Below are positions 15,001-18,000 of a DNA stretch of 46,566 nucleotides, one piece after another. Made by a program: the position numbers. The DNA is from Escherichia coli (GTDB lineage Bacteria; Pseudomonadota; Gammaproteobacteria; Enterobacterales; Enterobacteriaceae): the NCBI RefSeq assembly GCF_003334355.1, contig NZ_QOWP01000029.1, one strand, 5' to 3'. The first letter of the stretch is position 1, and each line of letters starts with the position of its first letter.

Positions 15001-18000
15001 ATATTATTTGGTGCAGGGCGGTTTTAAGCGCACTGACCTGAACGATACCGAATCTGACTCCACTACGCTGGTGGCTTCTCGCTACTGGGATCTCTCCAGC
15101 GGCTGGCAGCGTGCCATTAACCTGCGCTGGAGTCTCGACCACTTTACCCAGGGTGAAATTACCAACACCACGATGCTGTTTTATCCTGGGGTGATGATTA
15201 GCCGCACGCGTTCTCGTGGTGGCCTGATGCCAACCTGGGGCGACTCGCAACGCTACTCTATCGACTACTCCAACACTGCCTGGGGCTCAGATGTCGATTT
15301 CTCCGTTTTCCAGGCACAAAACGTCTGGATCCGCACACTGTACGATCGCCATCGTTTTGTGACACGCGGCACGCTGGGCTGGATTGAAACCGGTGATTTC
15401 GACAAAGTACCGCCGGATCTGCGTTTTTTCGCCGGGGGCGACCGCAGTATTCGTGGCTACAAATACAAATCTATCGCTCCGAAATACGCCAACGGTGACC
15501 TGAAAGGGGCCTCGAAGTTGATAACCGGATCGCTGGAGTACCAGTACAACGTGACCGGAAAATGGTGGGGCGCGGTGTTTGTCGATAGTGGCGAAGCGGT
15601 AAGCGATATTCGCCGCAGCGACTTTAAAACCGGTACCGGGGTCGGCGTACGCTGGGAATCGCCGGTCGGGCCAATCAAACTCGATTTTGCCGTACCGGTC
15701 GCGGATAAAGACGAACACGGGTTACAGTTTTACATCGGTCTGGGGCCAGAATTATGAGTTTATGGAAAAAAATCAGCCTCGGCGTGGTTATCGTTATCTT
15801 ACTGTTGCTGGGATCGGTGGCGTTTCTGGTGGGCACCACCAGCGGCCTGCATCTGGTATTTAAAGCGGCGGATCGCTGGGTGCCAGGACTGGATGTTGGC
15901 AAGGTCACCGGCGGCTGGCGCGATCTCACCTTGTCTGACGTTCGTTATGAGCAGCCAGGCGTGGCGGTAAAAGCAGGCAATCTGCATCTGGCGGTCGGGC
16001 TTGAGTGCCTGTGGAACAGCAGTGTTTGTATTAATGATCTGGCGCTGAAAGACATCCAGGTCAATATCGACAGCAAAAAAATGCCCCCTTCTGAACAGGT
16101 TGAAGAAGAGGAAGATAGCGGTCCGCTGGATCTCTCCACGCCGTATCCCATCACCCTAACACGGGTGGCACTGGACAACGTCAACATCAAGATTGATGAC
16201 ACCACGGTATCGGTGATGGACTTCACCTCCGGCCTGAACTGGCAGGAGAAAACCCTGACCCTGAAACCGACGTCGCTGAAAGGCCTGCTGATTGCTCTGC
16301 CGAAAGTGGCGGAAGTGGCGCAGGAAGAAGTGGTCGAACCGAAAATTGAAAATCCGCAGCCGGAGGAAAAGCCGCTCGGCGAAACGCTGAAAGATCTCTT
16401 TTCTCGCCCGGTATTGCCGGAAATGACCGACGTGCATTTGCCGCTTAACCTGAACATTGAAGAGTTTAAGGGCGAGCAGTTGCGCGTGACGGGCGACACG
16501 GACATCACCGTGAGCACCATGCTGCTGAAAGTGAGCAGCATTGACGGCAATACTAAACTGGACGCCCTGGATATCGATTCCAGTCAAGGGATCGTCAACG
16601 CCAGCGGCACGGCGCAGCTGTCAGATAACTGGCCGGTGGACATCACTCTCAATAGTACACTGAACGTGGAGCCGTTGAAAGGTGAAAAGGTGAAGCTGAA
16701 AGTGGGCGGCGCGCTGCGCGAACAGCTGGAGATTGGCGTTAATCTTTCCGGTCCGGTGGATATGGATTTACGCGCCCAGACGCGACTGGCGGAAGCCGGA
16801 TTGCCGCTCAACGTGGAAGTGAACAGCAAACAGATTTACTGGCCGTTCACTGGTGAGAAGCAGTATCAGGCGGATGATCTGAAACTGAAACTTACCGGCA
16901 AAATGACCGATTACACGCTCTCTATGCGTACGGCAGTGAAGGGACTGGAGATCCCGCCAGCCACCATTACCCTTGATGCCAAAGGTAATGAACAGCAGGT
17001 CAATCTCGACAAACTCACCGTCGCGGCGCTGGAAGGGAAAACTGAACTCAAGGCGTTGCTCGACTGGCAGCAGGCCATTAGTTGGCGCGGTGAGCTAACG
17101 CTTAACGGCATTAACACCGCCAAAGAGATCCCAGAGTGGCCGTCGAAACTCAATGGCTTGATTAAAACCCGCGGTAGCCTGTACGGCGGCACCTGGCAGA
17201 TGGAGGTGCCAGAACTGAAGCTGACCGGTAACGTCAAACAGAACAAAGTGAACGTTGACGGCACGCTGAAAGGCAACAGTTATATGCAGTGGATGATCCC
17301 AGGGCTTCATCTGGAACTGGGGCCAAACAGTGCCGAAGTGAAAGGCGAGCTGGGGGTAAAAGATCTCAATCTTGATGCCACCATCAACGCGCCGGGGCTG
17401 GATAACGCGCTGCCGGGGCTTGGCGGTACAGCGAAAGGGCTGGTGAAAGTACGCGGCACGGTGGAAGCGCCACAACTACTGGCAGATATCACCGCGCGCG
17501 GCCTGCGCTGGCAGGAACTTTCCGTGGCGCAGGTTCGCGTGGAAGGCGACATTAAATCCACCGATCAGATCGCCGGGAAACTCGACGTACGCGTTGAGCA
17601 AATTTCGCAGCCGGATGTAAATATCAACCTCGTCACCCTGAATGCCAAAGGCAGCGAAAAACAGCACGAGTTACAGTTGCGGATTCAGGGCGAGCCTGTC
17701 TCCGGGCAGCTTAATCTGGCAGGAAGTTTTGATCGCAAAGAAGAACGCTGGAAGGGAACTCTTAGCAATACCCGCTTCCAGACGCCGGTCGGCCCGTGGT
17801 CGCTGACCCGCGATATTGCGCTGGATTACCGCAATAAGGAGCAAAAAATCAGCATCGGGCCACACTGCTGGCTTAACCCGAATGCGGAACTGTGCGTGCC
17901 GCAAACTATCGATGCGGGTGCCGAAGGGCGTGCGGTGGTGAATCTCAACCACTTCGACCTGGCCATGCTGAAACCATTTATGCCAGAAACCACTCAGGCC

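Follow-up and report, generated by a model that had tools for sequence, protein, structure and literature searches.

Does the short overlap between tamA and tamB tie the translation of one gene to that of the other, and does ytfP, which follows closely, belong to the same unit? The question is raised by a 46,566-nucleotide stretch of Escherichia coli DNA (NCBI RefSeq assembly GCF_003334355.1, contig NZ_QOWP01000029.1; hereafter the window, with positions numbered from its first letter), which carries the TAM (translocation and assembly module) genes and for which a preliminary description had proposed a translationally coupled tamA-tamB-ytfP operon. We find that the tamA-tamB overlap is real, correctly read, and ordinary; E. 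coli annotations all show the arrangement, and the operon has been described in print, i.e. both are already known. The three genes very probably form a single operon, whose co-transcription in this strain we infer. Substantial coupling of tamB translation to that of tamA is likely, given the conserved overlap at -4 or -1, a weak Shine-Dalgarno (SD) match, and the behavior of ATGA pairs assayed elsewhere. For coupling between tamB and ytfP, the chances appear about even.

At the tamA-tamB junction, the four nucleotides ATGA at 15754-15757 on the + strand (A15754 T15755 G15756 A15757) are common to the end of tamA and the start of tamB, with the tamB start codon (15754-15756) lying over the tamA stop codon (15755-15757). 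The junction reads ccagaattATGAgtttatgg, and the sequence at 15750-15759 is AATTATGAGT. The tamA coding sequence (CDS; 14024-15757, +) opens with GTG, ends with TGA, and specifies in 577 codons an Omp85-family outer-membrane protein. The tamB CDS (15754-19533, +) runs from the ATG at 15754-15756 to a TAG at 19531-19533 and encodes in 1259 codons an inner-membrane-anchored AsmA-like protein. Its start is unambiguous because 15754 is the earliest in-frame start past the upstream stop and must precede the hydrophobic N-terminal membrane anchor, which lies six residues later. A spacer of 2 nt (CA, 19534-19535, +) separates the tamB TAG from the ATG of ytfP (CDS 19536-19877, +), which encodes a 113-residue protein with a gamma-glutamylcyclotransferase-like GGACT domain.

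The identities of the three genes are equally clear. TamA matches the NCBIfam equivalog NF047950 with 840 bits (cutoff 625) over residues 11-577, and TamB matches NF047952 with 1550 bits (cutoff 825), its hydrophobic N-terminus being readable in the sequence. YtfP belongs to the GGACT/AIG2-like family (Pfam PF06094, E = 1.3e-28). Several complete E. coli genomes match the 6.5-kb tam region at 100% identity, and the boundaries of tamA, tamB, and ytfP drawn by the Prokaryotic Genome Annotation Pipeline (PGAP) in a 100% identical genome give the same three CDSs as here. As such, the gene names of the preliminary description are right, and its reading of the tamB ATG at 15754 over the tamA TGA at 15755-15757 is confirmed both by open reading frames (ORFs) and by the RefSeq/PGAP boundaries. 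Its statement that ytfP starts 3 bp after tamB holds as far as a close junction is meant, with the ATG at 19536, and the spacer is really 2 nt. The locus has every testable feature by which a TAM operon, and the class of -4 overlaps, is defined—i.e. a gene for a TamA-type Omp85 protein upstream, a tamB gene (N-terminal anchor, AsmA-like/DUF490 C-terminus) adjacent to it, downstream and on the same strand, a 4-nt overlap at tamA-tamB, and a spacer of a few nucleotides at tamB-ytfP.

Taken singly, the overlap is ordinary, not rare: among same-strand E. coli gene pairs, 707 of 2,987 (24%) lie at -8 to +6, and the spacing that occurs most often is -4 with ATGA (PMC10666635). The tamA-tamB junction is present in 5,426 of 5,426 complete E. 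coli genomes, with at least 99% identity over 100 nt in 5,370 of them, and the most divergent E. coli record (93%) retains both the -4 and the +2 spacing.

Retention of the overlap extends well beyond the species. We searched for the TamA loop motif F[FY]AGG..S[IV]RGY, taking a single representative genome of each species; the motif is 450 nt away from the junction, so that the scan does not select on the junction itself. Sorting of the resulting 120 loci by tblastn and ORF analysis yields 69 TamA-TamB pairs, called as an Omp85 gene with a long ORF after it whose product begins with a membrane anchor, and 22 BamA-skp control pairs, in which a skp-like ORF of ~170 codons follows. The first in-frame tamB start is at -4 in 39 of the 69 TamA-TamB pairs (13 ATGA, 16 GTGA, and 10 TTGA) and at -1 (TGATG) in another 13, i.e. 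at one or the other in 52/69, a count over loci that are not phylogenetically independent. The other starts are at 0 to +3 (4 pairs), at +8 to +12 (5 pairs), farther away (7 pairs), and at a doubtful -44 (1 pair), and TGA is the TamA stop in 54 pairs. By contrast, the BamA-skp controls are mostly spaced at +12 to +70, and only 1 of 22 is at -4. Because these internal controls are mostly without overlap, the overlap appears specific to TamA-TamB. TamB identity to the E. coli protein is just 22-35% across the scanned loci, a range in which synonymous sites are saturated, and therefore the overlap has evidently been kept under selection. Judged by these sequences, its retention across Proteobacteria is far beyond chance.

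Public gene calls match ours in Pseudomonas (GTGA, -4), Sphingomonas fennica (TTGA, -4), and Pararoseomonas (TGATG, -1), and in all three of these checked loci the downstream product is matched by the Pfam TamB model. The type of overlap is dictated by the TamA C-terminal motif, which varies by class (loci L004-L123). Specifically, gammaproteobacterial TamA ends in ..G-P-[ED]-L followed by TGA, which gives an (A/G)TGA overlap, and many alphaproteobacterial proteins end in ..G-Q-A-F followed by TGA, which gives either TTC-TGA-TG (-1) or TTT-TGA (TTG at -4). Where TamA terminates in Leu, the codon ends in A or G in 30 of 30 cases and is never CTC or CTT. In the Rhizobium/Agrobacterium loci and in Pasteurellaceae the overlap is lost, and TAA or TAG stops are found instead.

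The SD signals at both internal junctions are weak. Among 17 window genes with verified start codons, a comparison that took in only genes at 9634-30446, the anti-SD duplex of tamB ranks 15th (-4.7 kcal/mol) and that of ytfP ranks 17th (-2.5 kcal/mol, i.e. very weak). The SD-like match of tamB is a GGGG at 15742-15745 (+), 8 nt before the ATG and inside the tamA codons for ..GLGPEL, where it encodes a Gly at the C-terminal end of TamA that every group conserves (Gammaproteobacteria ..GLGPEL, Alphaproteobacteria ..GQAF). Because this conserved Gly dictates GGGG, an SD role of the motif is inseparable from the constraint on the protein, and its SD-like character may be incidental. The 100-nt RNA spanning the junction is no more structured than shuffled sequences (z = +1.07), with the tamB AUG unpaired and an A/U-rich start region. 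We therefore rejected coupling of the occlusion type, in which the tamB ribosome-binding site would be masked until tamA is translated; with an unstructured junction and an open AUG, the options left are termination-reinitiation or plain de novo initiation. A run of seven A at 15766-15772 (codons W-K-K-I) was considered as a slippery site and dropped, its register not being X_XXY_YYZ; it encodes conserved positive charges ahead of the TamB membrane anchor.

The account that we favor is one of termination-reinitiation within an operon, which we hold to be probable as a whole. A single mRNA would run from 5′ of tamA to a hairpin terminator at 19888-19915, and ribosomes would load at the strong ribosome-binding site of tamA. 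On terminating at the UGA (15755-15757), these ribosomes would already cover the tamB AUG (15754-15756) and could reinitiate there, with the weak GGGG 8 nt upstream and the unstructured, A/U-rich start region as possible aids. Production of TamB would thereby be linked to that of TamA, which would suit the reported 1:1 trans-envelope complex; the two proteins are described as encoded in an operon and forming a complex of that stoichiometry (PMC11014939). A looser termination-reinitiation may operate at the 2-nt tamB-ytfP spacer. Published reporter data are consistent with both steps: when five native ATGA pairs of E. coli were assayed with dual reporters, coupling was seen in four, strictly in three and at ~60% in menDH (PMC6728339), and reinitiation drops steeply with distance, a +2 spacer costing 5-70% (PMC10666635), so that ytfP would still be within range.

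Several points weigh against this account, and they are best read together with its main rival, in which tamB is initiated de novo even though it overlaps tamA. In that case the 30S subunit would bind the GGGG and the open, A-rich start directly, and the overlap would reflect mere compactness or a frozen accident. The fifth pair of the reporter assay, bioBF, provides the precedent: it has an ATGA and a weak SD and showed no coupling (PMC6728339). At the tam junction itself, a GGGG at a workable 8-nt spacing and an unpaired AUG in an unstructured region (z = +1.07) could permit such initiation. About a quarter of the TamA-TamB pairs (17/69) do without the overlap, e.g. Pasteurellaceae at +8/+9 and Rhizobiaceae at +42 to +50, and ten of the 39 cases at -4 depend on TTG starts, which are less certain. 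Moreover, with TamA exported to the outer membrane, co-translational assembly, the usual rationale for overlaps, is not obviously applicable. Our literature searches on tamA-tamB found no published coupling test, and the E. coli tamA-tamB-ytfP operon was still termed "predicted" in 2024, with reference to RNA-seq and EcoCyc (PMC11226057). To these points is added a published K-12 Term-seq RNA 3′ end within tamB, 23 nt before the ytfP ATG, which concerns ytfP and is taken up below. We nevertheless consider de novo initiation of tamB improbable. The -4/-1 spacing is held in 52/69 pairs at a level of TamB identity where synonymous sites are saturated, and no such pattern is seen in the BamA-skp pairs of the same scan; the GGGG, being set by a conserved Gly codon, is no evidence of a selected SD; and bioBF is outnumbered by the four coupled pairs among the five tested.

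A further alternative, in our estimate highly unlikely, is that tamB and/or ytfP are transcribed mainly from promoters of their own inside the upstream gene, which would leave the overlap uninformative on co-expression. A consensus promoter scan of 6.6 kb finds no promoter-like site near 15754 or 19536, and the two sites found in all are fewer than the 4.2 expected from shuffles, the sole + strand match lying at 14421-14449. The gaps of -4 and +2 leave no non-coding room for regulatory DNA, gene order and spacing are conserved, and co-transcription of the homologous pair has been observed in Brucella by reverse transcription PCR (RT-PCR). The point in favor of separate promoters is the K-12 direct RNA-seq coverage, which over 800 nt past the tamB-internal 3′ end is 254 against 80 upstream and could point to a start close to ytfP, although the K-12 interval also takes in chpS with its promoter. 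The supplements of a SMRT-Cappable-seq study do not list the tam operon genes. Within tamA-tamB-ytfP, a terminator scan returned nothing convincing, merely weak terminator-like matches inside genes, and one strong intrinsic terminator stands after ytfP (19888-19915, +), with an 8-bp stem (6 GC pairs) at 19888-19907, a TTCG loop, and a T-rich tail. In published Term-seq data, its K-12 counterpart, a 3′ end at 4448270, scores 14.2 as an intrinsic terminator. The one-unit proposal of the preliminary description thus fits the lack of convincing internal terminators and promoters, the terminator after ytfP, and the literature; its ytfP part is weaker.

Two observations bear on that weaker part. The first is the distribution of ytfP, which among the sampled loci is found 3′ of tamB solely in Enterobacterales. 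The +2 spacing of divergent E. coli recurs in Citrobacter and Photorhabdus, the two Enterobacterales loci beyond E. coli that reach that far, and it is always +2 where ytfP is present; in 27 further loci with a complete tamB, another gene or nothing follows, and ytfP is missing. The second is the tamB-internal 3′ end, at K-12 4447871 (tamB position 3759, window ~19512), which lies ~5 nt past a hairpin predicted in the last tamB codons (19481-19507, +; GCCGUGUCUGG-UGUAG-ACCAGGCAC-UGG). This end has 2,719 reads and the ytfP terminator 1,260 (Term-seq, LB, optical density 0.4), and the former appears again with 1,040 reads in a second sheet of supplementary file 1. The same dataset (Adams et al.) also contains antisense RNA 3′ ends in tamA (K-12 4442753, window ~14394, - strand, 44,902 reads) and in tamB (4444458), and an older screen lists ECS0021, a 57-nt antisense small RNA (sRNA) candidate opposite ytfN/ytfP (- strand of the tamB/ytfP junction), for which the northern blot was negative.

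It is possible, though we doubt it, that ytfP is only loosely attached, with the tamB-end hairpin making or protecting a 3′ end, many tamAB messages lacking ytfP, and the expression of ytfP being determined separately, an arrangement that is compatible with tamA-tamB coupling. The read counts, the absence of ytfP from the operon outside Enterobacterales, and the stem itself, which Citrobacter and Photorhabdus retain in a form altered by wobble changes, would all fit. However, the intrinsic terminator score of this 3′ end is 1.76, below the threshold of 3.0, and its Rho score of 0.80 marks it as not a Rho region. K-12 RNA coverage shows no drop across it, the codons under the hairpin are conserved, the fold lacks significance (z = -1.29 for a 100-nt window), and the +2 spacing is strictly conserved where ytfP occurs. 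The 3′ end may therefore represent an intermediate of RNA decay, or else weakly attenuate ytfP. Given this end, we temper the claim for ytfP, whose tie to the operon is less tight than that of tamB.

How, then, does the tam junction compare with related systems? A close likeness is the E. coli ydbH-ynbE pair, whose genes also lie on one strand and natively have a short overlap of stop and start; YdbH is paralogous to TamB (YhdP, TamB, and YdbH are grouped in PMC11226057). In a dual-reporter test, ydbH-ynbE is strictly coupled, the translation of ynbE depending on that of ydbH (PMC6728339). The pair differs from tamA-tamB in that its AsmA-like protein is encoded upstream, whereas in tam it is the Omp85 partner that comes first, and in that coupling has been measured for it. 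Its native overlap is described differently in the two sources: one chose four-nucleotide overlaps (PMC6728339) and the other speaks of a "native -1 nt overlap" (PMC10666635). More broadly, tam resembles the termination-reinitiation class with -4 (ATGA/GTGA) or -1 (TGATG) overlaps (Huber et al. 2019, 2023) in its geometry, its weak intragenic SD, and its products, which are partners in a heteromeric complex; the 2-nt ytfP spacer is within the range that still permits reinitiation. Unlike members of that class, TamA and TamB end up in different membranes, so that an advantage from co-translational complex formation is doubtful, and matched stoichiometry is more likely to be the benefit of the overlap.

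The homologous BR0048-mapB operon of Brucella suis has the same gene order, and the RT-PCR mentioned above, run across its junction, indicates co-transcription (PMC6377625). Brucella suis is an alphaproteobacterium, and the sampled loci of Rhizobium/Agrobacterium (L016, L070, L096, and L121) carry spacers of +42 to +50 and no overlap. The bamA-skp arrangement, recovered by the same motif scan, is alike in that a paralogous Omp85 gene is followed closely by an envelope-biogenesis gene on the same strand, and different in that its spacers, mostly +12 to +70 nt, leave room for an independent SD.

The start of tamA has features of its own. Its ribosome-binding region (14004-14018, +) contains two SD motifs, AAGGA at 14004-14008 and AGGAG at 14014-14018, and the anti-SD duplex is strong (-7.4 kcal/mol). 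The GTG start is embedded in an ATGTG motif, whose ATG at 14022 opens an out-of-frame ORF of 10 codons (14022-14054, +; ATG TGC GCT ATA TCC GAC AGT TAT GCT GTG TAA). Farther upstream, a possible pair of PhoP half-sites (GGTTTA-N5/6-TTTTTA, ~13929-13947) matches the consensus poorly, and we make no claim for it. The two-SD architecture of tamA has been described and mutated, and initiation at the AUGUG site is ambiguous and dual, with the GUG frame favored 2-3-fold (PMC9841429). In Salmonella, tamAB is under PhoPQ regulation (PMC11226057).

The surroundings of the operon present several further features. Downstream of ytfP, at 19878-20256, the window lacks the chpS-chpB toxin-antitoxin pair, which K-12 and many other strains carry between ytfP and ppa. 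This region is matched over at least 80% of its length in 2,321 of 5,426 complete E. coli genomes, with no chpSB among the matches listed; in the partial matches listed, chpSB is present or the match ends within the spacer. The tam region is 100% identical to that of strain AMSCJX02 (L002), but the window overall comes from another strain; its parts at 1-8900 and 30470-46566 are about 1-2% divergent from AMSCJX02, whose IS4 insertion in cpdB and IS621 copy are both absent from the window. At the Rfam gathering threshold, we find the sRNA ES239 (9445-9567), STnc450 (12919-12976, -) and ES036 (13056-13098, -) between paeA and msrA, two copies of naRNA4 (22082-22160 and 28323-28400), and a Mg2+ riboswitch (38449-38564) that corresponds to the mgtA leader in related genomes. 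Other gene pairs also overlap: yjfF has a GTG start 14 nt inside ytfT on the same strand (24718-24731), and the convergent genes cysQ and ytfJ share 11 nt at their 3′ ends (10364-10374).

Short overlaps are enriched among heteromeric complexes, and our Proteobacteria-wide count adds a little, in line with the published rule by which such overlaps mark the subunits of complexes; a paper on TAM evolution (PMC4494059) makes no mention of overlap, translational coupling, or ytfP. Taking the observations jointly, we offer a reading that we hold only tentatively, at somewhat less than even chances. The overlap may be an ancient and selectively maintained feature of TAM, kept as ATGA/GTGA in Gamma- and Deltaproteobacteria and as TGATG or TTGA in many Alphaproteobacteria. 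Virtually all TamB would be synthesized by ribosomes coming straight from the completion of TamA, which would fix the TamA:TamB ratio, and in Enterobacterales the hairpin-associated 3′ end would additionally tune the share of ytfP.

The value of these findings is mainly practical, and they open no new question. TamA and TamB act jointly in the biogenesis of outer-membrane proteins and lipids and are under consideration as targets for drugs. Should the translation of tamB depend on that of tamA, then nonsense, frameshift, or transposon alleles of tamA would also lower TamB, and perhaps YtfP. Under such coupling, phenotypes ascribed to "tamA" would need to be established with in-frame deletions, and with complementation that preserves the junction.

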